DNA of 64,000 nucleotides from a virus (taxonomy: Duplodnaviria > Caudoviricetes): IMG/VR virus record IMGVR_UViG_2903109678_000002, positions 1-64,000 of that record. One strand, 5' to 3'. The notes under the pieces are model-generated. The model saw only the letters and a program-made list of their open reading frames with translations. It made no database searches and was not told where the DNA came from. A program made the position numbers and the translations under genes. Positions 1 through 25,601 of this stretch are shown here, one piece after another (the stretch's first letter is position 1; every line of letters begins with the position of its first letter).

Positions 1-2487
1 TCATTGCTTGTCGTAAATCCACACCCGGCCTGCATTTTCTACCTCCTCACTGCAGTACTGCCCCTCGCCGATAAACAGCCGGTTGGCGGCATAATCTGTC
101 GCCAGGCTCGAGGAAAACGTAAAATCTTTATCCTCTGGCGCACTAATCGTCTGTTTTAACGTCCACTCCCCTTCCCACAGTTGGAAAATCCAGACCTTTC
201 CGCTGTAATTGGTACCTGATTGCCCTTTGGCAGATGAAGTATGCACCACGAAGGTGTTGCCATCGGGGGAGAAAATACTGTACTGACCAAAATAGTCCCC
301 CGCAGTCTGTTTAGCCTCCAGCAGTTGGCCCGCAATCCAGCCCTCTCTCTGCAGTTGGTAGAGCTGTAGCTTACCGGTATTATTTTCAAAATCCCTGTTT
401 CCAATCGCTATCAGCTCGCCAGAGGGATGCAAGCTGGCAAATGAGGTTCCCGAGGCAGGAATTCGTGCTGAATCCTGCCGGGTTACACCGGTGTCATCCA
501 GCGTACAGGTGGTGACCTTGATATACTCGGCCTCACCCTCTTTGAGAGTTTGAGAAAAAATCACCAGCTGCTCCCCGCTGCGGTTAAAACTCATCTGGTA
601 ACCAAACCGTTCATTTTCCTGCGGTTGTTCCGCCTGTAGGGTGTGTTTGTGTTGCCAGATGTTGTCCTGGTAATACCAGAGATACACCGCACCGGCGCTG
701 GCGGGATCATTATAAGTTGCCTGTTTGGCATACACTGCCAGCCGGCTACCGTCCGGGCTAATGGCTATTTTTTGACCATATCCTGAATTTGGCTGCGGAA
801 CTGGCACAACTTGCTGCCACTCATCCCACTCAGGCCAGGTACCGGCTATACGGCGGGCAAAGTAGAGCTTGTTACCATTCGGCACACCGATAAAAGCAGC
901 GGAACCGTCCTGATTGAGAGCGTATTGAGTAACAGGGCCAGATTGAGCGATAGCGGCTTTAAACACCGGCTCCCACTGACTGTCTGAGCGCTGCTGATAA
1001 ATATACATACCCAAACTTGCGTGATCACCACCAAAAATTACCGTCCGCCCATCGGCAGACATTCCTACGCTGCGTCCGATAAACGCATTAGCAATCAGTT
1101 CATATCCCTCCGGCTGCTCCCTGGGCGCAACGTAGTTGACCACCGGCTCCAGCTCCGGTAACGGCTCCCTGATCGGCGTCACCACATCGCCGCTCACGGC
1201 GCTCGCCATGGTCTGGCTAAACTCCAGCACAATAAACTCTGCCGGGCGTACCACGGCGAGGCCGATATTCATGCGCAAGATACCGTCATTGAGGTCTTGT
1301 TCGGTCATGCTGCTACCGACGCCAACCTGCACCTGATAACACTGCTCCGGTGTGGTACCAGCAAACGCTCCGGCTTCAAACAGGCCGAACAGGTAATTTT
1401 CTGCCGCATTGCGCAGCTGCTGCCAGGTCTGTGGGCCGTTGGGTTTAAACAGCACTTTGCGCAGCGACTGCTGCATATCGCGTTCGATGCGGTCAAAGGT
1501 GCGGCGCACCGGCACATAGCGCCATGCGACATCACCCGCACTCAGGGTACGCGCCCCCCACAGCTGCACGCCGATGCCGGGGAATTCACGCAGCATATTC
1601 ACCGCCAGCGTGCCGTCCTGGTTAAAGCGCGCCTGCGAAGCATCCCCTACCTTCACCAGCGGTTGCAGGCCTGGCTGCAAAGTGAGGTTGGCGGGGGCCT
1701 TCCAGGGGCCAATTTGCCTGTCGGTTTGCTGAATCAGGGCCGCTGCCACCGCACTGGGGGCCACCGGATGGATGACCGCCACCGGCTCGCCGCTACGCTG
1801 ATAAAGCAACCACAGAGGGCTGAGCCACGGATAGTAGAGTGCCGCGCTGGCGTTGGCATTGTACCCACTGACGAAGGTTGCCAGTGCCTCGGCATCAAAA
1901 CGCGGCTGGCGTTTCACCGGTTCAGTATCATCACCTGGTCGCTCTGCATCATTTGGCCCGTCCAGCAAGGCGAACAGCCCGCTGCCAGGCTGGCACAGAG
2001 CAGAAATAGCCAGCCCGACCGCCAGCGGTTGCCCCGCCTGCACCACCAGCGTGGCATCTGATAAATCCGCAATCTGATTGAGCTGGTCACTGCGGCACAG
2101 GTAGCAGGCACCGCCGCCGTTGTCGAAATAGGCTTTGAGCGCACTGAAGCTGGGGTGAGTCCAGTCCGGTTCGCTGCTGCTGTGGTTCTCGGGGCCAGAG
2201 TCCAGGCTACTGAGGCGCTGGTGTGCCGGGTTGCCACCCTTACGCACCGGACGGGCGCTGGCAAAGCCTGAGGCGCTCGCGCTACTGCTGAGGACACCAC
2301 TCTCTCCTTGCAGCCAGCGCTCAATTTCAGCAAAGCTACTGACCAGGTAAGGCTGAGACAGCGCCGACCACGGCCCGTCATTGCCGATAACCATCACCGG
2401 GAGGCCCGGTGCGGTTGCGGTTACAGAGAGTGAACTGCGGGTGATGTCATCAATATGCACACCGGGAGCAAGCGGGAAATTGAGCAT
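1..2487 (-). CDS. Afp2-like tail sheath protein fused to a C-terminal FG-GAP/integrin-alpha-like beta-propeller
   Basis: N-terminal ~425 aa carry sheath motifs (APGV, YFDNGGG, GPWKAPAN, WGARTL, WRYVPVRR, RPAEFIVLEFSQ). A Pro/Glu linker follows, then seven blade-like repeats (e.g. YGQKIAISPDGSRLAV, FGYQMSFNRSGEQLVI, FGQYSIFSPDGNTFVV). Confidence 0.9.
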   Translation of the reverse strand: MLNFPLAPGVHIDDITRSSLSVTATAPGLPVMVIGNDGPWSALSQPYLVSSFAEIERWLQGESGVLSSSASASGFASARPVRKGGNPAHQRLSSLDSGPENHSSSEPDWTHPSFSALKAYFDNGGGACYLCRSDQLNQIADLSDATLVVQAGQPLAVGLAISALCQPGSGLFALLDGPNDAERPGDDTEPVKRQPRFDAEALATFVSGYNANASAALYYPWLSPLWLLYQRSGEPVAVIHPVAPSAVAAALIQQTDRQIGPWKAPANLTLQPGLQPLVKVGDASQARFNQDGTLAVNMLREFPGIGVQLWGARTLSAGDVAWRYVPVRRTFDRIERDMQQSLRKVLFKPNGPQTWQQLRNAAENYLFGLFEAGAFAGTTPEQCYQVQVGVGSSMTEQDLNDGILRMNIGLAVVRPAEFIVLEFSQTMASAVSGDVVTPIREPLPELEPVVNYVAPREQPEGYELIANAFIGRSVGMSADGRTVIFGGDHASLGMYIYQQRSDSQWEPVFKAAIAQSGPVTQYALNQDGSAAFIGVPNGNKLYFARRIAGTWPEWDEWQQVVPVPQPNSGYGQKIAISPDGSRLAVYAKQATYNDPASAGAVYLWYYQDNIWQHKHTLQAEQPQENERFGYQMSFNRSGEQLVIFSQTLKEGEAEYIKVTTCTLDDTGVTRQDSARIPASGTSFASLHPSGELIAIGNRDFENNTGKLQLYQLQREGWIAGQLLEAKQTAGDYFGQYSIFSPDGNTFVVHTSSAKGQSGTNYSGKVWIFQLWEGEWTLKQTISAPEDKDFTFSSSLATDYAANRLFIGEGQYCSEEVENAGRVWIYDKQ

Positions 2488-2627: not shown

Positions 2628-2771
2628 CTACGGCAGAGTACAGAGCCTTGCGGTGAACCGAAAAGGGCCATGCTCCGGCGCGTTAATTGTCTGTTTTAAC
2701 CTCCACGGCCCTTCCCACAGCTGGAATCTCCAGACTTTTCCTCTGCCATCGCCATCAGATTGCCCTTTCAA
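2628..2771 (-). pseudogene. Decayed beta-propeller fragment, in frame after the stop codon of the 2772-4169 sheath gene
   Basis: 2671-2768 aligns ungapped to 131-228 (78/98 identical by hand count). Translates KGQSDGDGRGKVWRFQLWEGPWRLKQTINAPE versus KGQSGTNYSGKVWIFQLWEGEWTLKQTISAPE. Confidence 0.85.
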
Positions 2772-4169
2772 TCAAATCATCCCCCTCGGTTGTTCTCCCG
2801 CCTCAGGGTCATCCCGATAGGGATCCGACTCGGGCTCCGGCTCCGGTTCTGGCTCCGGTTCAGGTTCCGGTTCTGGCTCCGGTTCAGGTTCCGGTTCCGG
2901 CTCTGGTTCCGGCTCCGGCTCCGGTTCCGGCAACGCCGGCCCATCGGCAAGGGTGGCCCCGCCCAGCAGTTGGCTAAACTCGAGGAACACAAACTCTGCC
3001 GGTTTGACCACTGCCAGGCCAATGCGCATACGCATAATGCCAGCCAGCGTATCCTGCTGCGTCATGGTGCTGCCGAGGCCGATTTCAACGCGATAGCTGC
3101 TTTGCGGGGTATCCCCGGCGAAGGCCTGCTGGCGGAACAGGACGTAGAGATAATTCTCCACCCCGGCACGCAGTGCTTCCCAACTCACCGGGCCGTTGGG
3201 TTCAAACAGAAACCGCTGCATGGCCTGCTGCAAATCACGCTCCACCCGATCAAAGGTGCGGCGCACGTTAATATAGCCCCACGCCGGGCCGCTGTGGGTC
3301 AGGGTGCGCGCCCCCAACAGCACCGCACCACGACCGGGAAACTCGCGGAACATATTCACCGAGGGCGCGGTAAAATCCTTGCTGGTGAACGCCTGCTGGG
3401 CGCTGTTGCCCACGGCCACCTGCGGCTTCAGTCCACTGCTGAGCGGTAAATTACCCGGTGCGAGCCACGGGCCAGCGGCGTTATCGGTTTTCATCACCAA
3501 CCCGGCCGCCACGGCGCTGGGTGGCACCGCGTAAGTCCCCACTCTGCCTCCCTGCAATGTCCAGCGGGCATTGAGCCACGGATAGTAGAGCGCGGCACGG
3601 GGAGTGGGTGAAATCTCACCCAGAAAATCGTGCAGCCGCTGCGCCGAATAAAACCCCTGATGCTGCGGACCATCCAGCAGGGCAAAACGTCCGCTGCCGG
3701 GCTGGCACAGGTTGAGGATTCCCGCTATCACCTGCTGGGGTTGTCCGGCCTGCACCACCAGCGAGGCATCGCTCAGGGCTTCGATCTGCTCCAGCTGATC
3801 CACCGGGCAGAGGTAACAAGCCGTGCCGCCATTGGCGAAATAGGCGCGCAGAGCCAGTGCTTCAAGGCTGCCAGGATCGGCAGAGCGTTGGGCACCCGGT
3901 GCGTCCGCCGCTGCCGTCTGGGCGTCGTTGTCGGCCAGCCAGCGACTGGCCGCTGCTAAGCTCAGGCTCCCTACGCCCATATTGCCCGCACCTTCCAGCG
4001 CGAAATAGTCTTCCAGGCTACCGATCAGAGCTGGCTGCTGCTCGCCCCACCAACGGCTGCCCGCAGAGGTGAGCAACACCGGCACTGCGCGGGAGGACGA
4101 GCCAAGGGCGAGATCAAAGTGTGAAACCTCTTCAACATAAACACCGGGAGAGAGTGGCAATTGCGACAT
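2772..4169 (-). CDS. Afp2-like tail sheath protein with C-terminal (Pro-Glu)17 extension
   Basis: SPGVYVEEV, AYFANGG, GSGRFALLDGP, LGARTL, KPAEFVFLEFSQ, followed by a PE tract. Confidence 0.9.
   Translation of the reverse strand: MSQLPLSPGVYVEEVSHFDLALGSSSRAVPVLLTSAGSRWWGEQQPALIGSLEDYFALEGAGNMGVGSLSLAAASRWLADNDAQTAAADAPGAQRSADPGSLEALALRAYFANGGTACYLCPVDQLEQIEALSDASLVVQAGQPQQVIAGILNLCQPGSGRFALLDGPQHQGFYSAQRLHDFLGEISPTPRAALYYPWLNARWTLQGGRVGTYAVPPSAVAAGLVMKTDNAAGPWLAPGNLPLSSGLKPQVAVGNSAQQAFTSKDFTAPSVNMFREFPGRGAVLLGARTLTHSGPAWGYINVRRTFDRVERDLQQAMQRFLFEPNGPVSWEALRAGVENYLYVLFRQQAFAGDTPQSSYRVEIGLGSTMTQQDTLAGIMRMRIGLAVVKPAEFVFLEFSQLLGGATLADGPALPEPEPEPEPEPEPEPEPEPEPEPEPEPEPEPEPESDPYRDDPEAGEQPRGMI
2829..2930 (-). 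repeat. Coding (Pro-Glu)17 repeat with mixed synonymous codons
   Basis: 102 bp of imperfect 6-bp units using CCG/CCA/CCT/CCC and GAG/GAA. Confidence 0.95.
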
Positions 4170-4383: not shown

Positions 4384-6447
4384 CTAGCCGCGCCCCATTT
4401 TGCTCAGTTCCCGCTGGATGGCGCGTTCAATATGTTCCAGCGAGATAGTTTTTTTCTCCGCGCTTAGCCAACTGGCGAGCAGCGCGGCGTTGCGGATGTT
4501 GGCACCGGTCAGCGCCAGCTGCGCCAGCCGGGCAAAATCGACCTCTTTCGCCACTTTGATCTGCGGCGGCCACACCGCACGCCACATCTGCTCGCGCAGG
4601 TCGGCGTTGGGGTAGGCAAAATGCGTAATAAACGAGAAGCGGCGGGTAAAGGCATCATCCAGATGGCTACGGTTGTTGGTGGCGAGGATCACCAGCCCAG
4701 GGTGATGCTCCAGCCGCTGGAGCAGATAAGCCACTTCGATGTTGGCATGCCTGTCTTTGGCATCTTTGGTTTCACTGCGCTTACCGAACAGCGCATCGGC
4801 TTCGTCAAAGAACAGCACCCCCGCATCCTGTACGGCGAGATCAAACACGCGGGCCAGGTTTTTCTCGGTTTCACCGATGTATTTGTTGATGATGCTGGAG
4901 AGATCAACGCGGATCAGATCCACACCTAGCGCCCCCGCCATCACCTCCGCCACCATACTTTTCCCGGTGCCGGGGTCACCATAGAACAGGGCGCTGATGC
5001 CGGTGGCCTTGCCCACTTTGCGCGCAAAGCCACGCTCCAGCACCCGCTCGCGCTGGCGTACTGCGCACAACACTTCATCCAGCTGCTCGCGTAGCCCAGG
5101 GCTAATAATGATGTCATCCCAGCTGCGCTGCGGCGTGACGCGCTGGGCCAGCGCATTGAAATTCTGTTTAGCACGACGCAGGAAGGCGGCACGAAAATCT
5201 TCCTCCTGCGGCCACATCTTGCCGCGCTGCATCGCCAGCGCGTGGGATTCAGCCACGGCGCTACGCATGGTATCGAACGGCAGCGCAATACGCTGCACCA
5301 GCGCGCGGGCATCCCACTGTGGCGTATTACCACCAAGTAAAGAGAGCAGGTAGTTGTAGCGTTCTTCTAAGCCCGGCACGCCAATCTCCAGCGCGTGGCG
5401 GCTGAGGCGGCTAAAGGGCAACTGCGAAAGCTGTGCTGCACTGAGGGTGCAGATCGGCAAGGGCAGCCCGTCGCGCACCTGTTGCTCCACTATCTGTTCC
5501 AGCTGCTCGATCAGGGCGCTGTAGCTGTCGCCCCCTTCCCCCGCTGCTTTAGGGGGCGGGAGGTCCAGCACCAGCAGTGAACGCGTCAGCCGGGTGAAGT
5601 TAAACAGCTGGCGCAGCAACAGCGGCGCATCACGGCCGGTGTTAAGCAGTTGCAGCCAGGAGACCCACAGCGCCTGGCTATTGAAGTGGCGTGCCAGTTC
5701 AGCAATATAGGCTTCACGGTCGGTACCGGCTTCACTGCGGATGTCGAGCAGCGGCGTCAGGCTTTGGTGAAACGCCAGCTGGCTCACCGCCGCCTGATGG
5801 CTGCGATCGTTGTGTTGATCCTCCACCCAGCGCGCCATGCCCTGTAACCCAGCAGGCAGGCTTTCACTGCCTAACAGCCAGTCCAGCACCATTTCATGGG
5901 TGCGATAGCCCTGCTCTTCACCGGCATTACGCCGGGGCAACAGTTCGATCAGCCCGTCGCGCTGTAGCGGCGCATCCGCCTGTAGGCTGGCGCGTTGGGC
6001 ATGACGGAGAAAGGTGCCCGGACAGAACAGTGCCTGAACCAGCCCGAAACTGGGGCCTTCATTTTGTTGCAGCGGAAGCTGAGCAAATAGCTGGCGATAG
6101 CGCGGCTCAAAGCTGTTCAGGCAGCCCAGCAGCAGCACCGCCAGTTCGAACTCACTCAGTTGATACTGCTCCACCAGCTGCGCCATGCGGCTTTCGGCGG
6201 GCAGATCGAACTGCGGGATGTTGCTTTGCCAGTTGGCACTGCGACCGGCCCAGTAAGGCATGGCGCGCGTGGCGCTTTCCAGCTCGCTGCTGGGCGGATA
6301 GAAATCACTTTGTGGATCAAACTGATACTGCTGCTGGTGGCGCAGCAGAATGGCATCCACCTGCGCCACGGCCGCCAGAAAGGTATAGAGTTGATCTTCC
6401 GCGGCAGCGCTGTCGGCTGGCGGGACATCTTCGGGCATCAGGTTCAT
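4384..6447 (-). CDS. Afp15/Pvc15-like AAA+ ATPase
   Basis: Walker A GDPGTGKS, Walker B LFFDEAD, KYIGETEKNL, DRHANIEVAYLLQRLE; long N-terminal domain. Confidence 0.93.
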   Translation of the reverse strand: MNLMPEDVPPADSAAAEDQLYTFLAAVAQVDAILLRHQQQYQFDPQSDFYPPSSELESATRAMPYWAGRSANWQSNIPQFDLPAESRMAQLVEQYQLSEFELAVLLLGCLNSFEPRYRQLFAQLPLQQNEGPSFGLVQALFCPGTFLRHAQRASLQADAPLQRDGLIELLPRRNAGEEQGYRTHEMVLDWLLGSESLPAGLQGMARWVEDQHNDRSHQAAVSQLAFHQSLTPLLDIRSEAGTDREAYIAELARHFNSQALWVSWLQLLNTGRDAPLLLRQLFNFTRLTRSLLVLDLPPPKAAGEGGDSYSALIEQLEQIVEQQVRDGLPLPICTLSAAQLSQLPFSRLSRHALEIGVPGLEERYNYLLSLLGGNTPQWDARALVQRIALPFDTMRSAVAESHALAMQRGKMWPQEEDFRAAFLRRAKQNFNALAQRVTPQRSWDDIIISPGLREQLDEVLCAVRQRERVLERGFARKVGKATGISALFYGDPGTGKSMVAEVMAGALGVDLIRVDLSSIINKYIGETEKNLARVFDLAVQDAGVLFFDEADALFGKRSETKDAKDRHANIEVAYLLQRLEHHPGLVILATNNRSHLDDAFTRRFSFITHFAYPNADLREQMWRAVWPPQIKVAKEVDFARLAQLALTGANIRNAALLASWLSAEKKTISLEHIERAIQRELSKMGRG

Positions 6448-6501: not shown

Positions 6502-7434
6502 TTAATGGGGGGTGGGCACCGCCTCCGCATTTTTCTCCGGCACCTGCACCAGGCCATCAAGATTGACCTTTTTCACCGACCAGCTTGTGCCTGCCAGATC
6601 AAAGGTTTTCCCTGCCCAGCCGTTGGCGGTCTGCTCGAGCAACGTAACCTGTTCTGCCAGTACCAGCCCGGCCACGCTCACATCCACCTCCTGCACCGGT
6701 TCCCCGGCTTTCTTACGCCGGATGGTTAACGTGGGTACCGCCCGCACGGTGACGCGCGCCAGCGCCCCTCCCGGCAGCTTATGCGCCAGTTCGGCATACA
6801 GTGCCTGTTCTAACTGCAGCTGATCGTGGCCGGGGAGCGGTTCAAAGGTCGATTCCACCTTTTTCACCGGCAGAATTTCTTCCATATCATCCAGAACCAC
6901 CGGCATGGTGACGGCAAAGTTGAGAATGGTGCGCGGCTTATCCCCCAGCGCCTGCCAGAAGTTGCCGAGGCTGTTCAGCGCTTCTGGCTCGATAATGCGC
7001 AGCTGATACTTCTTAAACGCGCTGTTTTTACGCAACTTCAGCAGTGCGCGAATCATGGTGCTGTGGTTTTTCACCGAGTCGCTGTCCGGTTCCGCCTGCG
7101 GCGAGGTGGCACTGATTTTGGTCGGCGGCTCCCAGTAGGTCACCAGGTAGAGACAGCGGATAAAGGCGCGGTCCGGCTCATATTGCCCACTTTGCGGTAA
7201 ATAGGCAGTGGGTGAGCTGTGGCGAATCGCCAGGTCTTCATGAATCAGGTACATAAATAAGTGGAACGTCGGGCTATTAATTGACGCATCTTTATAATTG
7301 GGCTCATCGAAGCGGAAATTAAGTTTATCGCTGTCTTCGGGAACGCCAAAGCTGGTGTGCAAGTGGCGTTTAAGTGACATATTAAATTCACCGATCTCGC
7401 TGGCTGCGAGAGTGTCGAACAGGGATTTAGGCAT
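6502..7434 (-). CDS. Afp16/Pvc16-like cap / tail terminator (DUF4255-like)
   Basis: FMYLIHEDLAIRHS, YLVTYW and LNSLGNFWQALGDKPR motifs typical of Pvc16. Confidence 0.85.
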   Translation of the reverse strand: MPKSLFDTLAASEIGEFNMSLKRHLHTSFGVPEDSDKLNFRFDEPNYKDASINSPTFHLFMYLIHEDLAIRHSSPTAYLPQSGQYEPDRAFIRCLYLVTYWEPPTKISATSPQAEPDSDSVKNHSTMIRALLKLRKNSAFKKYQLRIIEPEALNSLGNFWQALGDKPRTILNFAVTMPVVLDDMEEILPVKKVESTFEPLPGHDQLQLEQALYAELAHKLPGGALARVTVRAVPTLTIRRKKAGEPVQEVDVSVAGLVLAEQVTLLEQTANGWAGKTFDLAGTSWSVKKVNLDGLVQVPEKNAEAVPTPH

Positions 7435-7635: not shown

Positions 7636-9099
7636 TTACAAAGTCTTGGTAATCATATCGCCAGTATTAGTAAATGCAACCGCATCACCAATCTTAAGTA
7701 TGTAATCGATAGACAGACTATAACCAACACTCCCCACCCCGCCGCGATGTGTTTTTTCATGTCGACTACCATTTATATAAACACTATCCGAATTATAATT
7801 CACCCCATTCAAATCAGCACCCCTTCCAAAGCCAGCCAAATACGTACCAGAAGAATTAACATAAGCAATAAAATAACCCCTAGAACTATACCCATATAAA
7901 TGACAGTTATGCAGCCTGGCCATTTGAATTATTAACATCTCCTCGGTAAAATTAGAATACAGCTGTCCAGAGCTGTTAATTTTTATCGTCGAATCATCGA
8001 CTTTCAACCCCAACTGCCCGGTGCTATTAATTTTTAATGTATTATCATGGCTTACGCCTAAAACCGCACCATAAGGCCCTGTTCCTTTATATTGTTTAAG
8101 GCCTTTTTTCTCCCCATTGGCGGCACCAACATTAATCCAGATACCGTCAATATCCTTTGGCGCACTGCTAATGACAGCAGCAACACCGCCATCATAGTCA
8201 GCATTATTTGAATATAAACTAACGCCTACCTCACCATTCGTTGTTATTTTCAACCCATTTGTACCGCTTATTTTCACATTAACTTTATTATCAGCGTCAA
8301 TCTCTAACGACGAACCCGTCGCCATCCTTAATGCATTGCTTTCAATTTTTAAGCCTGACATTTTACTAGTATTCAGCATCAAGCCATTAGTACTGCTGAC
8401 TAAGCCCCCCGAGGCATGGGGCATTACCCCTAGCTTCCCGGTACTGCTATCAATCTTTAACGTATCATCATGGCTCACGCCTAAAACCGCACCAGCAGCA
8501 TATGTGCTTTTATATTGTTTAAGACCTTTTTTACTCCCCATTCCACCAACATTAACCCCAAGACCGCTAATATCCGTTGGGTTATGGGAAATAACAGCAG
8601 CAACAAAGCTATCAGAGTCAGCATTGTATGAATATAAATTAACCTCCACCTCACCACCTTCTGATATTTTCAACCCATTTTTATTGCTTGTTTTAACATT
8701 AACTGTATTATCAGTGCCAATCACTAACGACTTCCCAGCGTCTAGACTCACGCCATTGGTATCGGAAAGCAGCCCTCCCGTTGCTTTCGCCTTTACATGC
8801 AATTTTTCATTTTCAAACACCAACCCATTACCGGTTTTACCACCATTATTATCGTCGGTATTTGCCATTCCTAGCGCACCGGCGACATCATAGTGCTGAT
8901 CCAATAGCTGTTTATAATCCGCTTCGCGCGGTACGGCATTGGCGCGAAATTTTTTGATTAATTCCTCACGCTTTTGCGCAAAGGGCAAGGTGCTGGCCGC
9001 CTGCGGGGCGGATTCCGACTGCGGCGCGATCGCGGCTTCAGGCTGCTTCTGCGCTGAATCCTGTGCATTATCCGTTGCTGCTGGGGTCTTTTTAGCCAT
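7636..9099 (-). CDS. Afp13/Pvc13-like tail fibre with shaft repeats
   Basis: N-terminal LIKKFRANAVPREADYKQLLD anchor motif; GLxx/LxV shaft-like repeats; AT-rich distal part. Confidence 0.8.
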   Translation of the reverse strand: MAKKTPAATDNAQDSAQKQPEAAIAPQSESAPQAASTLPFAQKREELIKKFRANAVPREADYKQLLDQHYDVAGALGMANTDDNNGGKTGNGLVFENEKLHVKAKATGGLLSDTNGVSLDAGKSLVIGTDNTVNVKTSNKNGLKISEGGEVEVNLYSYNADSDSFVAAVISHNPTDISGLGVNVGGMGSKKGLKQYKSTYAAGAVLGVSHDDTLKIDSSTGKLGVMPHASGGLVSSTNGLMLNTSKMSGLKIESNALRMATGSSLEIDADNKVNVKISGTNGLKITTNGEVGVSLYSNNADYDGGVAAVISSAPKDIDGIWINVGAANGEKKGLKQYKGTGPYGAVLGVSHDNTLKINSTGQLGLKVDDSTIKINSSGQLYSNFTEEMLIIQMARLHNCHLYGYSSRGYFIAYVNSSGTYLAGFGRGADLNGVNYNSDSVYINGSRHEKTHRGGVGSVGYSLSIDYILKIGDAVAFTNTGDMITKTL

Positions 9100-9226: not shown

Positions 9227-11596
9227 TTACAACGCGGCACCGTAGTCAGGGCGCGGCCAGTTCAGGGTGATCGGTTCGGATAACCAACTGTAATGAATCT
9301 GTTCCAGCGGCCAGGGAATATGGCGCAGCAAAATATCTGCCGGATGCGGCTGTACGCTAAGCTGCCAGCCGTAGCGCTGTTGCTCCAGGGTGCCGGCGCG
9401 CTGGAGAAACAGCTGACGTAACTCTGACAGGCTGAGGTTTTTCAGGCCCGGTAGCTGGAGCAGCAGCGCTTGCAGCGCCGGTTCCAGCTGTTGCGCCTGC
9501 TGCTGGGCCAGTTCCAGCGGCCACTCTTGCTCCAGCGGCCATTCCAGTGGCCAGCCACACAGCAGTTTGCTACACAGGCTGCGCCACTCACCACCTTCGT
9601 CGTCTTGCCAAATCAGCGCATCCAGCAGCGCTATCGCCTGTTGCTGCGCCTCGGGCCCGCTAAAGCGCAGCGGTGCCTGTGGATCGGCTTGCACCACCAG
9701 CCCCTGTGAACGCAGCCAGCCGGGTAGCAGCGGCCAGAGCAATACCAGGCCCGCGTGATGCAGCTCCAGCTGTTCGGGCAGCGGTGGCGGCTTTGGTGGT
9801 CGCTGCGCAGCATTGCGGGTTGTGGACGTGAGTCGTGCCAACTGCTGCTGTGCCCGCGCAGAGAGCAGTTGCTGCCAGCCTTGCTTTTCGTTAAGGGGAC
9901 GTCGTGAGCCTTCAGGCTGGAGGGCCACCTCCGCGGTTAACGCGGCGGCTGGCGGTTGCTGCGCCTGCTGTACAAGCCAGGGTTGCAGCGCCAGCAAACG
10001 TTGCGGGTTGCCCGCAGTTAACAACCGCTCCAGCTCACGCCGCTCCTGCGGCTGTGGCGGACGGAGTTCGGCCGCACTAAAGCCATGCAACAGTGGAAGT
10101 TCGCTCTGCTGCCACAGTAACAACAGCAGCGCCAGCGGGGATGCCGTGCTCAACCGGGCCGCTGGCGCTAACAGTGCGCACAGCTGCCGCCAGTCACTGG
10201 CCGTCATCAGCTGCAACAGCCGCTGGCGCCCGCCAGGCAACTGCAATACGCCGATCAGCGCAGCCCTCTCGGTGGGGGAAATTGCTGGCAGGCCCGCAAG
10301 GCGCTGGCGTAATAACTGCTGCGGCGTGCGGGGCTGCCCTGACAGCGGCTGTGGCGTGCGGCGGCTTCTCGCCCGAGCGTTTACACCAGACGGCACAATC
10401 CGGGGCTGCCCCACCCGACGCTGGCGTAATAATGGCTGCGGCCTGGAATGGCTTCTCGCCTGAGCGTTAACCCCAACTGGCATACTTTTCAGCTGGCCCG
10501 CCACTTGCTGGCGCAGCAACGGCTGCGGCGTGCGAGGCTGCCCTAACAATGGCTGCGCCGTGCGGCGGCTTCTCGCCTGCGCGTTAACCCCAACTGGCGT
10601 ATTTTTCAGCGGGCCCGTCACTCGCTGGCGCAGCAACGCTTGCGGCGTGCGGGGCTGCCTTAACAGCGGCTGTGGCATGCGGCGACTTCCCGCCTGCGCG
10701 TTAACCCCAACTGGCGTATTTTTCAGCTGGCCCGCCACTCGCTGGCGCAGCAACAGCTGCGGCGTGTGAAGCTGCCCTAACAGCGGCTGTGCCGTGCGGC
10801 GGCTTCTCGCCTGCGCGTTAACCCCAACTGGCGTACTTTTCAGCTGGCCCGCCACTCGCTGGCGCAGCAACGGCTGCGTCGTGCGGGGCTGCCTTAACAA
10901 CGGCTGCGGCTTGGAATGGCTTCCCGCCTGTGCGTTAACCCCAACTGGCGTACTTTTCAGCTGGCCCACCACTCGCTGGCGCAGCAACGGCTGCGTCGTG
11001 CGGGGCTGCCCTGACAATGGCTGCGCCGTGCGGCGGCTTCCCGCCTGCGCAATAACACCTGACTGGCCCTGCTGCTTTGACGCCGTCGCGTCAGTTTGCA
11101 GCGCCCACCCTGCCACAGGTTGCGGCACAGTGGCAAAAGTGGGCCAATAGCCATTGCTCAGGTAACGCAGCAATGTCGACCACTCTGGTGGCGCTGCGTC
11201 AGCCAGAGGGATGGCTCCTGGCGTATCGCCACTGAGATCCCTGAGACTTTCCTGCTCCTCAGGGGGATTGCTTATCTCACGCCGATCGGCTGCGCCCCGA
11301 TCCTGGTCGGCAGGAACGGCGAATCTCTCCGTTGGGTCAATCTCCTGCTGCTGTAGCGCCTGTTCCAGCGCGGCCAGCAGCCGTGGCACAAACTGCCAGG
11401 AGAACTGCCTAAGCGGCAGCGTGCCAATATCCACTCGTAATGGCTCTGTTAGCATGGTATCTGCGGGAAGATAACGCGCCAGTAACGCCGCGAGCTGTGG
11501 GTTCAGCTGCTGCATCAGCTGGCTCACCTGCTGCTGGAGATAAGCCGCATGCGTTCGTGAGGTGGTTAGCGATACGGTGACACGATCAATCGGCAT
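9227..11596 (-). CDS. Afp14/Pvc14-like tape measure protein with internal tandem repeats
   Basis: LRVDIGTLP and YLSNGYWP at the N-terminus; HAGLVLLWPLLP, LFLQRAGTL and DILLRHIPWP at the C-terminus. Start set at MPIDRV after an AGGAG RBS. Confidence 0.85.
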   Translation of the reverse strand: MPIDRVTVSLTTSRTHAAYLQQQVSQLMQQLNPQLAALLARYLPADTMLTEPLRVDIGTLPLRQFSWQFVPRLLAALEQALQQQEIDPTERFAVPADQDRGAADRREISNPPEEQESLRDLSGDTPGAIPLADAAPPEWSTLLRYLSNGYWPTFATVPQPVAGWALQTDATASKQQGQSGVIAQAGSRRTAQPLSGQPRTTQPLLRQRVVGQLKSTPVGVNAQAGSHSKPQPLLRQPRTTQPLLRQRVAGQLKSTPVGVNAQARSRRTAQPLLGQLHTPQLLLRQRVAGQLKNTPVGVNAQAGSRRMPQPLLRQPRTPQALLRQRVTGPLKNTPVGVNAQARSRRTAQPLLGQPRTPQPLLRQQVAGQLKSMPVGVNAQARSHSRPQPLLRQRRVGQPRIVPSGVNARARSRRTPQPLSGQPRTPQQLLRQRLAGLPAISPTERAALIGVLQLPGGRQRLLQLMTASDWRQLCALLAPAARLSTASPLALLLLLWQQSELPLLHGFSAAELRPPQPQERRELERLLTAGNPQRLLALQPWLVQQAQQPPAAALTAEVALQPEGSRRPLNEKQGWQQLLSARAQQQLARLTSTTRNAAQRPPKPPPLPEQLELHHAGLVLLWPLLPGWLRSQGLVVQADPQAPLRFSGPEAQQQAIALLDALIWQDDEGGEWRSLCSKLLCGWPLEWPLEQEWPLELAQQQAQQLEPALQALLLQLPGLKNLSLSELRQLFLQRAGTLEQQRYGWQLSVQPHPADILLRHIPWPLEQIHYSWLSEPITLNWPRPDYGAAL
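10286..11059 (-). repeat. 117-bp (39-aa) coding tandem repeat: five full units plus two shorter ones
   Basis: CCCCAACTGG recurs at 10471, 10588, 10705, 10822 and 10939. Unit resembles GVNAQARSRRTAQPLLGQPRTPQPLLRQRVAGQLKSTPV. Confidence 0.95.
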
Positions 11597-11650
11597 AAGT
11601 TCTCCTGTCAGCAGGACACAGCCCAACACCGGCTATGGCTGCGCGCGGGC

Positions 11651-14600
11651 TTAATCGTCCGGTGCCACAAACAGCAGGAAGTTATCGCTCGCCTCCTTGT
11701 TCCATGCGGCTTGGTTTTCCACTGTCCACTCTTTAAAGGGTTTCAGTACCCCATTAACGGTTTCCCTGGCTTCAATAGCCGTAAGCCTCGCCGACTCGGC
11801 ATGGTCCGGAATGCGCGCTATCCCAATGCCTTCTACCAGCTCGGCCAGCATACCCAGCGAGAGCATGCGCATGAGCTTCAGGGAGTCTTCCCCGACCGCC
11901 ATTCCCTGGTTTTGCCAACTGGCATAGGTGCTGCTAAAACTGGCAAATTGTTCGTCTGTTAACCACAGCACCCTCACCTGAATGTGCGCCGGCACCTCCC
12001 CCTGCACAATTTTGCGCACCCGCTGATCTTCGGCTTCAATCTGCTGTGCCGTCTTATCTTTCACATTCCCTATGTAACGCAGTGGCAATACCACGCTGAG
12101 GGTAAAGGAGAATCGATCGCGCTGTAGCAGGTCGTCATGGGAGGCAGGTTTGACCAGCGTGTCCTTAGATTTGATGAACCAGTAATAACGGTATTTTTCG
12201 AAGTCAACGGGGTCGTCCGCACTGTCTGTCACCGTAATGTTGGCGTAGCCTGTGACAGGGTCGACAGCATCAACGGTGGCCTCATACTGATAATCATTGC
12301 TGGCGGTACGTTCTTTGGTTTTAGACGCAGCATAGTAAGTACGCTCCAGGGTGAGCGTATCCCCTTTGCGGAGCACCTGCGGCCACGGTTGATCGCTGTT
12401 GGTGGTAATTTTATATTTGTTGGTCCCTGCGATAATCACTTCAGCGTGTTCTTTATCCAGCAAGTACTTCATTTCGTTAAGCCAGATATCGCTGAAGCTG
12501 GCGTTTAGCGTTGTCTTCGTCAGATCCAGCGCCAAAATCTCTTTTAACACCGCGCGCAGTTGCGCAAATTTACCCGGCAGTAGCAGGAAGCTGTTTTCAC
12601 GTTTAGGTGCACCCGTACCTGTTAGCCACAGTTCTTCTCGCACATCGTTACCCAGTTGCATCACCAGCAGGTTGCCTATGTGTACTTCCGGTTCGGTGCC
12701 AATTTTATATTTGAGATCAACCATATGCTTGCGCGTCATGTAGCCCGTAAGCTCCCTGTTCGTCTCCAGTACCAGGAAAGTTTCCGTGCCTAACTGCAGC
12801 TCTTTGGCCTGCGAGATTTTCAGCGGGGCCTGGCCCTGCTCTGGCGGCATATCCGGCAACAACAGGGCATGTTCCACCACATAAAACGACAGTTGGCGAA
12901 TATCGGGCGCGGTGCTGAACATCTCCTTGCCGATCCCCAACTGCCCGGCAAGGCGGCGCTGGAGGGAAGAGACCTGATTGTTGATAAATACGGTGCGTTT
13001 GTAGCCGACTTCAGGCACCTGGCGCAGCAGATTCAGGCCGATATACAGATTATCCAGCAGCTGCTGGTCAGTTGTGATCTGTTTATTGAAGTCTTCAATA
13101 CCGAAGTAATTTAACAAGAAGCGAATCAGCCGCAGCATGGCACTGAGTTCCATCTGGTTTATCTCTGCGGTGTTAATTAATTTCTCTTTAAGATCGGCGT
13201 CTTTATCGTCGCGATAGACCGCATCCAACACGCTACCTTCAGCAAATGGCCACTGCGCACCGTAGGCTTCCATCATGCTGAGATGGTCAGTGGAGAGATT
13301 GAGCAGCCGGGTCAGGTTTTCCAGCTGCTGCAGGTTGCTGGCAAGGTGCTGCTCAAACCCCAACAGAAAATGGTGTAACTGACGAACTTCCGGGGTCGGG
13401 TCAACTTGCTGTAGCTGGTAGAGCGGTGGCACCACCAGGCTGGCCGGGTAGTAACGGCGCAGATGACGATAACGGCCCAGGGGATAAGGCGGTGAGACCT
13501 GGCTGCGGGGGGACGCAAAACGCAATGCAATCAGCGACACAATGTTGCTTGCCTTACCGGCTATTTGCACCCCGTTACGGTAGATCAACACTTTTTCCAG
13601 CATCAACGCTACTTGTTTATCCAGGTCACGACTTGCTCCCCACAGCACCGGCAATTTATCTGTTAGCGTCCTGAAGAATTTCTCTTTCTCTGCTACGCCA
13701 TCAAACGCCAACTCACGCACCGCTTTCACGCCCTCCACCGCCGTCAGCGCAGTATTAAAGTGACTGAGTGAAATCACCTTCTTTCCGCCCAACTGGCCGG
13801 GAGGAAGTTTGGTAATCCAGCCATAGGCTGCCTTCGGCCCATGGTATTCCCCACGCGCCAGATCGACCTTTTCCTGACGTTCCAGCCGTGCTGCCAGCAC
13901 ATTTTGCAGCGCCAGATAGAGGTTGGCGTAACACGCATCGACATCTTCCAGCAGTTCGTCAGCCTCGATCTTTGCTGACAGCGTGATCACCTCTTCTTTT
14001 GCGCTAAGCACCGAGACACTCCGGAACACCTCACCCAGGTTGCGATGCTGCTCCAGATAGTTGGTCAGTTTCTGTTTATAAGCATCGTCATTGAGGTTAA
14101 GCCGCGGCAACTGTGAAATCTGTGCCACCACCTGGTAGCTGCCAAACAGCTCCATACGGGGGGGGCCTGGAAGAACTGGATCTTCCGGCTTCTCTTTTAC
14201 GGGTTTTTTAAACACAAAATTGCGGTTTACGGCATCGTAATAGTAGTGGAAACGGCCATTTGTCTCGCCATCTGCGGCCACGCGGGGATCGCGCGTAATC
14301 GTCGCATCGGCAAAGTAAAAACCAGCCGGCGTGCCTTGATGGTAAAGATCAAGAATGCCACGGCGATAATCTTCCGCCGTCACCGGGCTGGTGGTGAGCA
14401 TCTCTTCCGGCACAAAATTCGGCGGAAACAGCCCGCTGCCCACGGGCGCGTTTTCCAGCGTCAGTAGATCCTGCAACGGTAGCAGGCAACGGTAGCTGAT
14501 ATCAGAAATGTTCCAGGCCAGCGCCTCCAGCAGCGTAATGCCCGGATCGTGCAGTGCGGTATCGGTCCAGGTTTTCCCCGCCAGTTGTTCTACTACCTCG

Positions 14601-14686
14601 CGTGCATCACGCATCAGGGTGTTAAAGTGGATGTTCTCTTTTTCAGCTTCCACCAGCGAAGGCGGAATATAGTTATCGCTCATCAC
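11651..14686 (-). CDS. Afp12/Pvc12-like baseplate protein
   Basis: WTDTALHDPGITLLEAL, PVTAEDYRR, HRNLGE, YVVEHALLLP, EVPAHI. Confidence 0.88.
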   Translation of the reverse strand: MMSDNYIPPSLVEAEKENIHFNTLMRDAREVVEQLAGKTWTDTALHDPGITLLEALAWNISDISYRCLLPLQDLLTLENAPVGSGLFPPNFVPEEMLTTSPVTAEDYRRGILDLYHQGTPAGFYFADATITRDPRVAADGETNGRFHYYYDAVNRNFVFKKPVKEKPEDPVLPGPPRMELFGSYQVVAQISQLPRLNLNDDAYKQKLTNYLEQHRNLGEVFRSVSVLSAKEEVITLSAKIEADELLEDVDACYANLYLALQNVLAARLERQEKVDLARGEYHGPKAAYGWITKLPPGQLGGKKVISLSHFNTALTAVEGVKAVRELAFDGVAEKEKFFRTLTDKLPVLWGASRDLDKQVALMLEKVLIYRNGVQIAGKASNIVSLIALRFASPRSQVSPPYPLGRYRHLRRYYPASLVVPPLYQLQQVDPTPEVRQLHHFLLGFEQHLASNLQQLENLTRLLNLSTDHLSMMEAYGAQWPFAEGSVLDAVYRDDKDADLKEKLINTAEINQMELSAMLRLIRFLLNYFGIEDFNKQITTDQQLLDNLYIGLNLLRQVPEVGYKRTVFINNQVSSLQRRLAGQLGIGKEMFSTAPDIRQLSFYVVEHALLLPDMPPEQGQAPLKISQAKELQLGTETFLVLETNRELTGYMTRKHMVDLKYKIGTEPEVHIGNLLVMQLGNDVREELWLTGTGAPKRENSFLLLPGKFAQLRAVLKEILALDLTKTTLNASFSDIWLNEMKYLLDKEHAEVIIAGTNKYKITTNSDQPWPQVLRKGDTLTLERTYYAASKTKERTASNDYQYEATVDAVDPVTGYANITVTDSADDPVDFEKYRYYWFIKSKDTLVKPASHDDLLQRDRFSFTLSVVLPLRYIGNVKDKTAQQIEAEDQRVRKIVQGEVPAHIQVRVLWLTDEQFASFSSTYASWQNQGMAVGEDSLKLMRMLSLGMLAELVEGIGIARIPDHAESARLTAIEARETVNGVLKPFKEWTVENQAAWNKEASDNFLLFVAPDD

Positions 14687-17481
14687 ACAGTCTCCTCTGG
14701 CTGGGGTAATCCCACACTGGCATCACTGGGCAGCTTGAGATTAATCACTGCCAGCGTGGTTTCAATCGCCTGGTATTTATCTTTATCAGCCTGCGTTTCA
14801 TTTTTGACATCATTCAGCGTGACATCGGTGACATACCGCACATCAGGGTGCTGTTGCAGCACCTGCATGATGTCATTAATGGTCAGTGTGTCCCCCGGTT
14901 GCACCCGCTGCTGGCCATTCAGCCAGGGCATAAAGTGCTGGCGCAGCATCTCATCCAACTGACTTTGCAGATTGGCCTGGTTGACATGCTCATCCACGGC
15001 AACGTCATATTTCACCACAACGTCGAGATAGCAGGGGTTGAGCACCCGCAGATTGAGCCAGGGAGAAGCCCGATCGGTAATAAACTGCTGAATCTCTTTT
15101 AATCGTGCCGGGCTTAATATCGGTTTGTGGGGGTCCTGCCCCTGGTTGATGCCCGCTTGTGGGATCACCATAATCTCTTGCACGCGATCGGTAACGAATA
15201 CCGGTTCTGCTGTTGCGCTAGTGCCCGAACTGGCGGGTGGCACTTTCGGAATATACAAACCGTCGAGGATTTTCATACCGGGCAGGCGCACATGATGCAC
15301 ATCCGGGAAGTTGGCAATAATCAACTGGACAATATCGCGCCAGTTAGAGGCACGGCCACGATGCATAACCTGTTCAGCAATGCGCTGCATGCTGGCGGCA
15401 TCGCTCTCCTGTGCCTTCCCTCCCCAGCCCGGCAGCGGCTGAAGCACGGCAAGCAACCCATTGAACGGGACCACCGTGCTGCTCACCGTACCGGCGGGCA
15501 GCGGCGTGGCGAAGTGCTCAGGCGCAATACTGGCGGCATCCACCAACGTGGCACTCTGGGCATTGGTCCATAAACCATTGAACCATGGGTACGGCTCCAC
15601 ATTCGGCTGCATAGCCAGTAGTTTCTGTTGATCAGTGGCGGTGAGATCCTGAGTCATATAGACAGGTAGCTGTACCTGATGGTCAGTGAGTTCAAACTTA
15701 CTGACCCGAAGCCAGTAGCGTCCCGTGGGCATTAGCGTTGTCTCGTGAGCCGCGTCCGCTGGCAGCGTCACTGCGCCACTGCCGTTACGGGCAAAGTTGC
15801 CGGTGTTGTCACTTAGCTGCTTACTTAACGCTTTCCACTCAGCGACACCGTTAGTCTGCGACAGGTACTCCCACTCCAGCCCATCAGGCGTGAACGGTAC
15901 CGGCGTCTCGATGGACCAGTAGAGGCTCAGCTGTTGGCCGGGGTGCATATCCGTGAAGCCGAGATAGACGTGCGGGCTGGCGAACTCCTCGCGGGATTCA
16001 GCATAGCCATAGGGCAGCAGCGCGTATGGGGTAAATGCAACGTCAGCAAGGCTATAGCTGACATCGACATCCTCCAGACGGGGATCGTAAGGGGGATTGA
16101 GCGGCTTATTCTCGGTGATATTCCCCTCTTTAAACGTCTTTTCATACAGTGCATGCTGGAAGTCAATGGCCCCTAAATTCACCACCAGCGTATTTTCCCC
16201 CTCCTTTAGGGTGCGGGAAAAGATCAGTGCATTATCGCTTTGCCTCTCGCCAAACAACGAGACCTCTTTTTGCACCAGATCTTCACTCTTGACCTTGAAA
16301 ACCCCGTTACCCGAGACAGGATTATTGGGGTAGTTGGCGTACCAGGCCTTAAGATCCGCCGGACGTCCCTGCCATTTCGGGGTGAGGGTGAGCGTCAACG
16401 TCTGGCCGCTGGCGTTGCGCCATGCCGGAGATGACAGCGTAAAGGGGCTGCCTGCTTTCGGTGCCATACCAAAAAGATAATTTACCTGTTGAACCGGGCC
16501 TGAAACGCCATCGGCGGTCGTCACCGTCACGTCTGCAGCATTGACGACGGTAATCTCCACCGCCGTCACTTTTGGTAACGTCGCGTTAGATTTTTCCTGA
16601 TAGAGGCGTATCACCGGGTCGGTCAACAACGCATACTCCGCTGGCGCTTCCGGGCTCAGGCTCGCTTCCAGGGTGGCCGTTAGCGTATTGCCAGAAACAG
16701 AACACAGCAGTGGCTGCCATTTGGTGCCGATGCTCACTTCGGCCTTAAACCCTACAGGCGAGCTGTCAAACGTCAGCGTTAACTTACGCTGACCCGCGCC
16801 AGCCGCTTGCAGGGCGGCAATCACCAACAGCCAACCGTTGCGCACGGTTTCATCTTGCGGCTGTCCCCGCTTTCCGCCCAACTGGGGCGAAAATAGCCGC
16901 ACGCCACCCGCTGGCGGTGTGATGCCCGTCGCCACATCAAGCAGGGTACAGGCCCGGACGGTGTTTGTGACGGTATCAGGCAGCAGCCAGCGAATATCGG
17001 TAATACGCGCATGGTTGATCAGCAGCGGGGCATCCAACCGGTAGTTCACGGGTACACCCGCACTGTCTTGCCCGGCACTGAACAGCAGCCCTTCGGGTAC
17101 ATTCAGCGTCTGGTGCTGCTCATCCGGCGTGAGCTGTAGCATCACCTGGTCGGCCGCTGCGGGCAGCGGCTTAACCCCGAGCACGCCGCGAAAATAGAGA
17201 TCGCGATGCCGCGCTGGCAAGGTGTTCATCAGCCGGCGCGGGGTTTCCATCATTTTGAGGAATGCGAGAAGAAACGCCTGCTGCGGCTGAAGCGTACCCG
17301 GTGCCGATGCTGCTTGCTCCAGCAGAGCGGCGAGAGATTGCGGTGTCTGACCATCATTAAAGAAAACCTCATCCCAATTCTTAAGATCGTTGAATGGGAT
17401 AGCACGGGTATATGCCTGGAAATTCTGCAGGTGCGTAAGCAACGAACGATTATCATAGATAAACTCTTCTGGCGATGTCAT
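14683..17481 (-). CDS. Afp11/Pvc11-like baseplate wedge (J/gp6-like) protein
   Basis: PQQAFLLAFL, RHRDLYFRGVLG, AGQDSAG, HRGRASNWRD, LNPCY. Confidence 0.88.
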   Translation of the reverse strand: MTSPEEFIYDNRSLLTHLQNFQAYTRAIPFNDLKNWDEVFFNDGQTPQSLAALLEQAASAPGTLQPQQAFLLAFLKMMETPRRLMNTLPARHRDLYFRGVLGVKPLPAAADQVMLQLTPDEQHQTLNVPEGLLFSAGQDSAGVPVNYRLDAPLLINHARITDIRWLLPDTVTNTVRACTLLDVATGITPPAGGVRLFSPQLGGKRGQPQDETVRNGWLLVIAALQAAGAGQRKLTLTFDSSPVGFKAEVSIGTKWQPLLCSVSGNTLTATLEASLSPEAPAEYALLTDPVIRLYQEKSNATLPKVTAVEITVVNAADVTVTTADGVSGPVQQVNYLFGMAPKAGSPFTLSSPAWRNASGQTLTLTLTPKWQGRPADLKAWYANYPNNPVSGNGVFKVKSEDLVQKEVSLFGERQSDNALIFSRTLKEGENTLVVNLGAIDFQHALYEKTFKEGNITENKPLNPPYDPRLEDVDVSYSLADVAFTPYALLPYGYAESREEFASPHVYLGFTDMHPGQQLSLYWSIETPVPFTPDGLEWEYLSQTNGVAEWKALSKQLSDNTGNFARNGSGAVTLPADAAHETTLMPTGRYWLRVSKFELTDHQVQLPVYMTQDLTATDQQKLLAMQPNVEPYPWFNGLWTNAQSATLVDAASIAPEHFATPLPAGTVSSTVVPFNGLLAVLQPLPGWGGKAQESDAASMQRIAEQVMHRGRASNWRDIVQLIIANFPDVHHVRLPGMKILDGLYIPKVPPASSGTSATAEPVFVTDRVQEIMVIPQAGINQGQDPHKPILSPARLKEIQQFITDRASPWLNLRVLNPCYLDVVVKYDVAVDEHVNQANLQSQLDEMLRQHFMPWLNGQQRVQPGDTLTINDIMQVLQQHPDVRYVTDVTLNDVKNETQADKDKYQAIETTLAVINLKLPSDASVGLPQPEETV

Positions 17482-17525: not shown

Positions 17526-17960
17526 TTAACCAGCGGTGACGAAGAATTGAGTGTTAATAAAGCTGCCGGTGCCGATCATCGGTGACCCAACAGTGGGATC
17601 GGGTGTTGAGGCGGGTGGCGGAAGGGTGGCCGGTGTTATGCCTGTGCACACGGCGATAAACTTCGTCCCCACGGTAATGACGTTGCCTTTACTGTCACAC
17701 CAGACCTGAAGCTGGTCGGCGTTTAACGCCTGTATCTCCAGTTTGCAGGTGCCCGGAACGGTATACGGCGGTGCGATATACGCGGTCGACATCACCTTGG
17801 TGGAGAGTTGATTGATATCTGCGGCGACACAGACCTTCAGCGCATTGATGTCGGCGTGGCCCGTACCGGTCATCACCGCCGGAACGGGCACCACGGTCCG
17901 GGTCATAAAAGTGGGGTCATAGAGCACTTTATCGCCGGTCACCACAATAAATTTGCTCAT
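17526..17960 (-). CDS. Afp10-like PAAR-type spike tip protein
   Basis: Position after gp25; short Pro/Thr/Cys-rich beta protein with YIAPPYTVPG and GTGSF..FVTAG. Confidence 0.7.
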   Translation of the reverse strand: MSKFIVVTGDKVLYDPTFMTRTVVPVPAVMTGTGHADINALKVCVAADINQLSTKVMSTAYIAPPYTVPGTCKLEIQALNADQLQVWCDSKGNVITVGTKFIAVCTGITPATLPPPASTPDPTVGSPMIGTGSFINTQFFVTAG

Positions 17961-20811: not shown

Positions 20812-20987
20812 CTGAACCTCCAGGCTTCATCACGTATTTTTGCCATCACCTGGCTCATGACCTGGCGCGAAATACGATTGACCAGGTCCGCTTCGGTAAC
20901 CGGAGAGAGAGAGGCTGCCGGTGGCTGATCGTTGATATCATCAGTGACGCGTGCTTCGATGATCAGTTCACGAATTTCAATCGTCAT
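20808..20987 (-). CDS. Afp6-like spike plug protein
   Basis: MTIEIRELIIEARV motif; overlaps the upstream stop codon (ATGA). Confidence 0.82.
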   Translation of the reverse strand: MTIEIRELIIEARVTDDINDQPPAASLSPVTEADLVNRISRQVMSQVMAKIRDEAWRFR

Positions 20988-21448: not shown

Positions 21449-21449
21449 G

Positions 21450-22646: not shown

Positions 22647-22711
22647 GGCTTAACCTCTTTACGTCTATTTTACGGAAGGTGGCAGGAGACGTGCCAACGC
22701 GTGGACGGCAC

Positions 22712-25589: not shown

Positions 25590-25601
25590 AAAACAGCGTG
25601 A

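Follow-up and report, generated by a model that had tools for sequence, protein, structure and literature searches.

The window analyzed in the present study is the whole stretch of 64,000 nucleotides that was examined (positions 1 to 64,000 of the IMG/VR virus record IMGVR_UViG_2903109678_000002, classified as Caudoviricetes). The ~30.2 kb down to position 1 form one minus-strand gene cluster for an extracellular contractile injection system (eCIS) of the Afp/PVC class, and the last gene of this cluster encodes a sheath protein fused to a beta-propeller (P0001). The gene is intact, starts with ATG and is preceded by a GGAGA Shine-Dalgarno-like motif 7 nt upstream of the ATG. The gene and its parts are as follows.

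1..2487, minus strand: sheath-propeller fusion gene P0001, 828 aa, a single open reading frame (ORF) with its stop codon at 1-3
1210..2487, minus strand: Afp2/Pvc2-type sheath moiety, aa 1-426 (PF17482 at aa 321-425; matches to solved Pvc2/Afp2; tree)
1102..1209, minus strand: Pro/Glu-rich linker, aa 427-462 (identity to the homolog from Pantoea sp. A4 breaks here)
4..1101, minus strand: predicted seven-bladed FG-GAP-type beta-propeller, aa 463-828, GC 0.516 (AlphaFold2, structure searches, composition)

The original prediction, made from the letters of the sequence, had described a complete sheath domain, a Pro/Glu linker of ~35 aa and seven blade-like repeats. All nine motifs that it quoted were found at the expected spacing. 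The motif RPAEFIVLEFSQ at the end of the sheath domain corresponds to aa 414-425, and the blade motifs are located at aa 470-480, 522-528, 570-580, 628-638, 683-690, 733-743, 791-798 and 819-825. The propeller part had also been described as more AT-rich than the sheath part, which agrees with a GC content of 0.516 (0.544 at third codon positions) versus 0.612 (0.685 at third codon positions); that of the linker was 0.667.

Pfam analysis detected Phage_sheath_1C (PF17482) at aa 321-425 of P0001 (36.3 bits; cut-off 26.9), and Phage_sheath_1 (PF04984) scored below its gathering score (17.7 bits versus 31.4). The other sheath paralogs of the cluster were also under the gathering score of PF04984 (18.6-24.2 bits), suggesting that this model is weak for this sheath clade. 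Among solved structures, the best relatives of the sheath moiety were 9qgl_2A (E 1.1e-71), Pvc2 (6j0b_A, E 1.6e-66) and Afp2 (6rao_C, E 8.1e-62). The likeness to these major sheaths of PVC and Afp is homology across the whole sheath moiety, which falls in the same tree clade and shares with Pvc2/Afp2 a conserved N-terminal PGV motif and a C-terminal PAEF...SQ strand. The solved Pvc2/Afp2 chains (354-355 aa) aligned to their last 1-2 residues and ended opposite residue 427-428 of P0001, that is, 1-2 residues past the start of the spacer. Further, in a comparison of 26 sheath sequences, plain Afp2/Afp3-type sheaths stopped 15-17 residues from the P of PAEF; the chain of P0001 ran ~400 aa further. 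Thus, everything beyond residue ~428 is appended to a complete sheath. P0001 also differs from Pvc2/Afp2 in a Ser-rich insertion of ~45 residues after residue ~60; this insertion is not specific to the fusion because plain sheaths of the same clade share it.

The last 377 aa of P0001 were modeled by AlphaFold2 with a mean pLDDT of 88.7 and a pTM of 0.88 (30-row alignment). We read the strand list of the model as seven blades of four strands each that close into a ring; for the seventh, the DSSP list shows three strands. A failure of this part to fold as a propeller, which had been named as one of the outcomes that would overturn the prediction, is thus not what the model shows. The structural comparison by VIA-align, which is independent of Foldseek, placed integrin alpha propellers in the top eight rows (Z 29.2-31.1, rmsd 3.0-3.5, 326-338 residues aligned), and WD40 propellers followed at Z 26-28, ~3 Z lower. 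When Foldseek was run against the PDB, generic seven-bladed propellers came first (designer WRAP proteins and WD40/RACK1; E ~1e-11, TMq ~0.6), and the top matches in BFVD included named FG-GAP repeat proteins (E ~1e-20, TMq ~0.8). The C-terminal part matched 10,892 proteins in phmmer at E<=0.001, including 34 at E<=1e-30, and all four matches that were scanned with Pfam were FG-GAP_2 repeat proteins; this homology excludes chance resemblance. Within the propeller of P0001, Pfam reported PD40 (26.8 bits, summed from sub-threshold repeats) and FG-GAP (12 bits versus a cut-off of 22.1). Two full-length homologs of P0001 passed PF14312 (FG-GAP_2), namely P0005 with 75.3 bits and P0006 with 83.4 bits. 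Judged from the predicted structure, the C-terminal domain is, as had been proposed, an FG-GAP-like seven-bladed propeller, and it is nearest to the integrin-alpha type. It shares the seven-bladed fold with integrin alpha and bacterial FG-GAP_2 proteins.

When ~5.8 billion protein clusters were searched, four other proteins covered 95-100% of P0001: P0003 (86% identity), P0004 from Pantoea sp. A4 (58%), P0005 (38%) and P0006 from Serratia marcescens (36%). The remaining listed matches covered no more than 52% of P0001. A cluster look-up added P0271 as the sixth full-length member. The 41 proteins that a profile search gave at E<=1e-60 included no other one of full length. In addition, a metagenome contig of 9,473 bases from a different study covered positions 1-848 and 955-2491 of the window at ~91% identity and crossed the junction of sheath and propeller. 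The runs X2 and X4 contained nothing but short pieces of low depth and did not enter any reading of habitat or strain. The possibility that the fusion is an assembly artefact, which had been raised together with the prediction, was ruled out by these five other full-length proteins and the bridging contig.

In tblastn searches against plasmids, 135 records matched, none of which covered 80% or more of P0001. A search of genome contigs for related loci, with patterns taken from the sheath part, kept 80 loci; these were ordinary sheath loci, and none matched past residue 473 of P0001. The propeller matched 4 of 401 family genomes, including G000, and in the other three, which belong to one genus, the matching proteins were not sheaths. 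None of three other genomes from the genus to which the genome of the window belongs had a sheath match, suggesting that the eCIS island is strain- or species-specific. In the literature searched, we found no published description of a sheath with a C-terminal propeller; supplements, which may list long sheath variants, were outside the scope of that search.

To place the fusion among sheaths, we consulted two trees. In the tree of 26 rows, seven fusion-type sheath moieties formed one clade (SH-aLRT 98) within the Afp2/Pvc2 clade (96), and the sister of the fusion clade was wS1, the plain first sheath gene of the cluster. The tree of 33 rows repeated this result (fusion clade 99, Afp2/Pvc2 clade 96), and the plain enterobacterial sheaths P0272 and P0278 adjoined the fusion clade. 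These sequence comparisons indicate a single origin of the fusion sheaths from a structural Afp2-type sheath. The architecture is kept even between lineages in which the sheath moieties share only 52-54% identity. Further, a plain sheath of 420-436 aa from the same clade is also encoded on each of the contigs that carry P0004, P0005, P0006 and P0271, as expected if the fusion is an extra, minor subunit.

Appended domains were also found in more distant sheaths. Sheath relatives of 740-2110 aa numbered 1,188 proteins at E<=1e-20; 120 of these were listed and six were scanned with Pfam. In three of these six (P0304, P0356 and P0299), the sheath C-terminal domain was located at the chain end, which is the usual type with an internal insertion. 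The other three carried appended domains: an FG-GAP_2 propeller in P0313, Invasin_D3 and four Big_1 domains in P0307, and an AAA domain in P0343. P0313 aligned with the whole of P0001 (27% identity, E 1e-54). The sheath of P0313 belonged to the Afp3/Pvc3-type clade in the 33-row tree, and the well-supported branches of this tree (SH-aLRT of 95 or more) require at least two origins of the sheath-propeller architecture. We conclude that a sheath with a C-terminally appended propeller is a genuine, rare and recurrent 'evolved sheath'. As for the other long proteins, P0343 has the sheath followed by the AAA domain in one chain, and P0299 is a protein of 959 aa with two sheath units.

Sheath and propeller of the fusion have diverged to different degrees. 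P0001 and P0004 were 92.5% identical in the sheath versus 25% in the C-terminal part, with the break within the spacer, and P0006 and P0271 were 85% identical in the sheath versus 41% in the C-terminal part. The only gene of the cluster with a lower GC content than the propeller (0.516) is the fibre gene (0.431). On these comparisons, the propeller behaves as a swappable or mobile module that is mosaic between close relatives.

Related propellers were also found outside sheaths. G161, one of the three genomes of another genus with a propeller match, contains five PVC-like clusters and, near flhBA, three genes in tandem for FG-GAP_2 propellers. The product of the first is a protein of 522 aa, whose propeller shared 43% identity (E 5e-83) with that of P0006, the Serratia fusion, from a common QLPxF motif on. 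The N-terminal 146 aa of the same protein matched the N-termini of ORFs that occupy the Pvc13 fibre position in the PVC clusters of G161 (E 2.9e-6, 5.4e-4 and 1.5e-3). One of these ORFs was checked; it lies between genes at the pvc12 and pvc14 positions and carries an adenovirus-fibre repeat. The match to the fibre of the window itself was weak (E 0.005-0.01). Thus, the carrier of related propellers is either a sheath or a fibre-type N-terminus. The fibre-type N-terminus was found only on the G161 propeller proteins and not on P0001, whose N-terminus is the sheath. The tandem genes (L014 17123-19899 and L015 1-2315) are located near flhB/flhA and a Fic gene, outside the PVC clusters. They are possibly orphan fibre variants, the second gene having been judged by eye only.

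The eCIS cluster contains the core genes for tube, sheath, spike, spike tip, gp25, tape measure, cap, AAA ATPase and fibre. Upstream of the fusion gene, its features are as follows, line by line in the direction of transcription.

28859-30235, minus strand: TibC-like heptosyltransferase (Pfam; TibC_1st 67.5 bits, Glyco_transf_9 31.4 bits)
28329..28784, minus strand: tube protein, Afp1 position (Pfam, position)
21450..28301, minus strand: five sheath paralogs, wS5 (Afp4-type), wS4, wS3 and wS2 (Afp3-type group) and wS1 (plain Afp2-type) (Pfam, trees)
20077..21472, minus strand: CIS_tube protein (244 aa) and second tube protein (162 aa)
18419..20059, minus strand: VgrG-like spike (Pfam; Phage_GPD and Phage_base_V)
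17526..18400, minus strand: CIS spike tip (144 aa) and gp25-like wedge protein (147 aa)
11651..17481, minus strand: two large ORFs (1011 and 932 aa) at the Afp12/Afp11 baseplate position (by position only; no Pfam match)
9227..11629, minus strand: CIS tape measure protein (Pfam, 190.7 bits)
7636..9099, minus strand: adenovirus-like tail fibre at the Afp13/Pvc13 position, GC 0.431 (Pfam, composition)
6502..7434, minus strand: cap protein, Pvc16_N (Pfam, 43.9 bits)
4384..6447, minus strand: AAA+ ATPase, Afp15/Pvc15-like (PF00004 94.2 bits; PF22977 61.6 bits)
2772..4169, minus strand: wS6, sister sheath paralog of 465 aa with a (Pro-Glu)n tail (Pfam, tree)
2824..2931, minus strand: tandem repeat of period 12/18 encoding the Pro-Glu linker of wS6
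2637..2771, minus strand: remnant of the last propeller blades, in frame behind the TGA stop of wS6

The cluster thus contains seven sheath paralogs, five at the canonical position and two (wS6 and P0001) after the ATPase gene; the Afp locus on the Serratia entomophila plasmid has three sheath genes. The TibC-like gene precedes the first tube gene on the same strand at a distance of 74 nt, and sheaths of this clade have the Ser-rich insertion; glycosylation of particle proteins is a possibility. The GC content of the fibre gene (0.431, and 0.393 in its C-terminal half, versus 0.56 for the cluster) suggests that the fibre was recently exchanged. The next gene downstream of the fusion is a convergent SulP/STAS transporter gene, and a downstream scan for promoters and terminators gave one terminator-like site versus 1.1 expected. 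No regulator was recognized in the region 30.2-33 kb. The rest of the window (33046-64000) is an unrelated lambda-like siphovirus prophage that adjoins the eCIS island, with genes for terminase, capsid, tape measure, tail L, a JAB/NlpC tail protein, a J-like tip protein of 1722 aa and a tail fibre.

The gene next to the fusion bears on whether the propeller is needed. The remnant at 2637..2771 matched aa 753-797 of P0001 (E 5.1e-10, 60%). In the 44 codons directly after the TGA of wS6, read in the same frame, 27 of 44 residues were those of the last blades of P0001 (E 5e-13), and the DNA was 79.8% identical over 99 nt. This in-frame remnant identifies wS6 as a former second sheath-propeller fusion, in which the propeller was mostly lost by deletion. 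P0001 might then be what remains of a duplication, in decay and with little or no function, as wS6 would be. Loss of the propeller was evidently tolerated in wS6, and the family is very rare, with six full-length members found and no sheath match in the three same-genus genomes. In contrast, the ORF of P0001 is intact with a ribosome-binding site, its propeller is predicted to fold with high confidence, and the architecture arose at least twice and is kept across lineages whose sheaths have diverged to 52-54% identity. We therefore give little credence to a relic.

The order of genes differed between the two contexts seen. It was cap, ATPase, wS6 and fusion in the window and cap, fusion and ATPase in a related metagenomic eCIS cluster (L096), so that the fusion gene was within two genes of the cap gene in both. 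At the end of the latter cluster, an ORF of >2,034 aa (L096 14960-21184, minus strand) without a Pfam match is convergent to the ATPase gene. The proximity of genes for the cap and the assembly ATPase in both contexts would also suit a protein that is no lasting component of the particle: a sheath mimic that acts in assembly as a chain terminator, length regulator or decoy against polymerization, with the propeller as a platform for protein interactions. Beta-propellers are often scaffolds of this kind, as the generic WD40 matches illustrate, and a sheath-AAA fusion exists in P0343. However, a factor that touches conserved partners should not show 25% identity in the propeller versus 92.5% in the sheath, and the related propellers on fibre-like proteins have no sheath context. 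An assembly factor is accordingly improbable.

The original prediction had also allowed that the fusion carries cargo on the sheath, and the propeller could be an effector tethered through the sheath domain. The gene is at the downstream end of the cluster, where Afp/PVC loci hold their payload genes (the Afp17/18 position), and Pfam recognized no toxin or payload gene in the cluster (window 1-30235) or just downstream of it (L009). In contrast, the sheath remains outside the target and is not expelled, and the add-on is a propeller built of repeats, of a kind common in surface or binding roles, that matched no enzyme or toxin family. Further, the fusion gene of L096 is located between the cap and ATPase genes, within the structural block. 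Given that the sheath is not expelled, that no toxin family was detected and that the gene lies where it does in L096, we rejected the cargo interpretation as very unlikely.

We favor the interpretation that P0001 is an 'evolved sheath' subunit of an Afp/PVC-class eCIS, a minor subunit that would display an exchangeable ligand- or surface-binding propeller outside the particle, and estimate its probability at roughly 0.55. The sheath moiety of P0001 would co-polymerize as a minority subunit with wS1, the plain major sheath, and the Pro/Glu spacer of ~35 residues would let the propeller sit outside the sheath wall. There, the propeller would act as an exchangeable binding module, a second element for adhesion or targeting besides the baseplate fibres, and would stay outside the target cell instead of being injected. 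We infer the incorporation of the fusion into particles, its position, its stoichiometry and its ligand. Of the earlier proposal of a minor sheath subunit that displays a binding domain, the structural part held; the display role fits four indirect lines, namely the companion plain sheaths, the mosaic propeller, the related propellers on fibre-like N-termini and the other appended sheaths.

The place of the subunit in the particle is more tentative. The gene position and published PVC structures point to the cap-proximal last layer of the sheath, where a bulky C-terminal appendage would be least obstructive and might block the addition of a further ring; we regard this placement as possible but somewhat doubtful. 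The cap adaptors Alg16B and SalCis16b of clade Ib/IIa offer a parallel, as described in the portions of the sources available, in that an extra component of the distal end is encoded near the cap gene, which matches the preferred position of the fusion (PMC8894135; bioRxiv 10.1101/2025.06.01.657177). They are not sheath paralogs and have no propeller; we claim no homology to the fusion, for which we only infer a distal position. Still more speculative is a second targeting layer that is independent of the fibres. Evolved-sheath protomers would close the sheath at the cap end with a ring of six adhesin modules that are swapped by recombination like fibre tips; these modules would be FG-GAP propellers in this cluster and, in another lineage, Ig domains of the invasin type.

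Alternatively, the fusion might occur at intervals over the full length of the trunk, in the way that Pvc3 and Pvc2 alternate, and many propellers would then serve avidity binding, shielding or bundling. The spacer is long and prone to be extended (36 aa in P0001; a tandem-repeat (Pro-Glu)n tail in wS6), as needed to thread out of the wall. Trunks of mixed subunits exist in the form of alternating Pvc2-Pvc3 (bioRxiv 10.1101/2025.04.20.649488, in the part available), and extra outward domains are common in sheaths as far as the accessible text of two surveys goes (PMC9230969; PMC8894135). However, the extra domains that are known lie inside the core, as insertions that separate its N- and C-terminal parts, and do not follow the handshake strand (PMC9230969, within the text accessible; P0304, P0356 and P0299). 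Further, the fusion gene groups with the cap and ATPase genes, outside the block of sheath genes. We thus consider a distribution along the trunk rather unlikely.

Several points weigh against a minor subunit that displays a binding propeller at the cap end. As the loss of the propeller from the sister paralog wS6 shows, this module can be dispensable. The C-terminal strand of the sheath is part of the handshake, according to the accessible portions of the structural literature (PMC9230969; PMC8894135; bioRxiv 10.1101/2025.04.20.649488), and a ring might not tolerate the 40-kDa appendage that follows it in P0001. A long flexible spacer, of ~60 residues in wS6, would not be needed at the open cap end and is better explained by a chain that escapes from the trunk wall, and the gene position rests on two contexts only. 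As for the propeller itself, the Pfam scan of P0001 gave no match to PF14312 at E<=1, unlike that of its homologs P0005 and P0006, and WD40 propellers were only ~3 Z lower than integrin alpha and came first in Foldseek. A propeller fold in common tells nothing about the ligand.

The contractile machine of the T6SS (type VI secretion system) has 'evolved' or specialized components (VgrG, Hcp and PAAR) with C-terminal add-on domains, which are expelled and carry toxins. P0001 resembles them in that a structural subunit of a contractile machine carries a C-terminal functional module through a linker. In contrast to these components, the sheath is not expelled, and the add-on of P0001 looks like a binding module. 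In published structures and surveys of sheaths, as far as their available text extends, extra domains are insertions that point outward (PMC9230969; PMC8894135). Domains III/IV of AlgoCIS Alg2 and the Ig-like domains of type 2/3 phage sheaths are such outward non-core domains, for which adhesion or stability has been proposed in the same sources. Those domains are inserted between the parts of the core, whereas P0001 appends a propeller instead of an Ig sandwich, after the handshake strand and through a flexible spacer. Beta-propeller lectins have been described on eCIS fibres, and fibres with propeller or lectin tips (the eBAP3 group; Pvc13/Afp13) share with P0001 a beta-propeller as the presumed binding domain (bioRxiv 10.1101/2025.05.13.653841, in the portion available). 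These fibres are trimeric and attached to the baseplate; in contrast, the carrier in P0001 is a sheath protomer, and its cluster has a separate gene for an adenovirus-like fibre.

The finding offers a testable case, consisting of one gene in one cluster that is open to heterologous expression. If the interpretation is correct, the C-terminal end of a sheath can carry a passenger after the handshake strand, and eCIS particles can present binding modules at sites other than the fibres of the baseplate. This would change the view of how Afp/PVC-type particles attach, how they are oriented and what determines their specificity.

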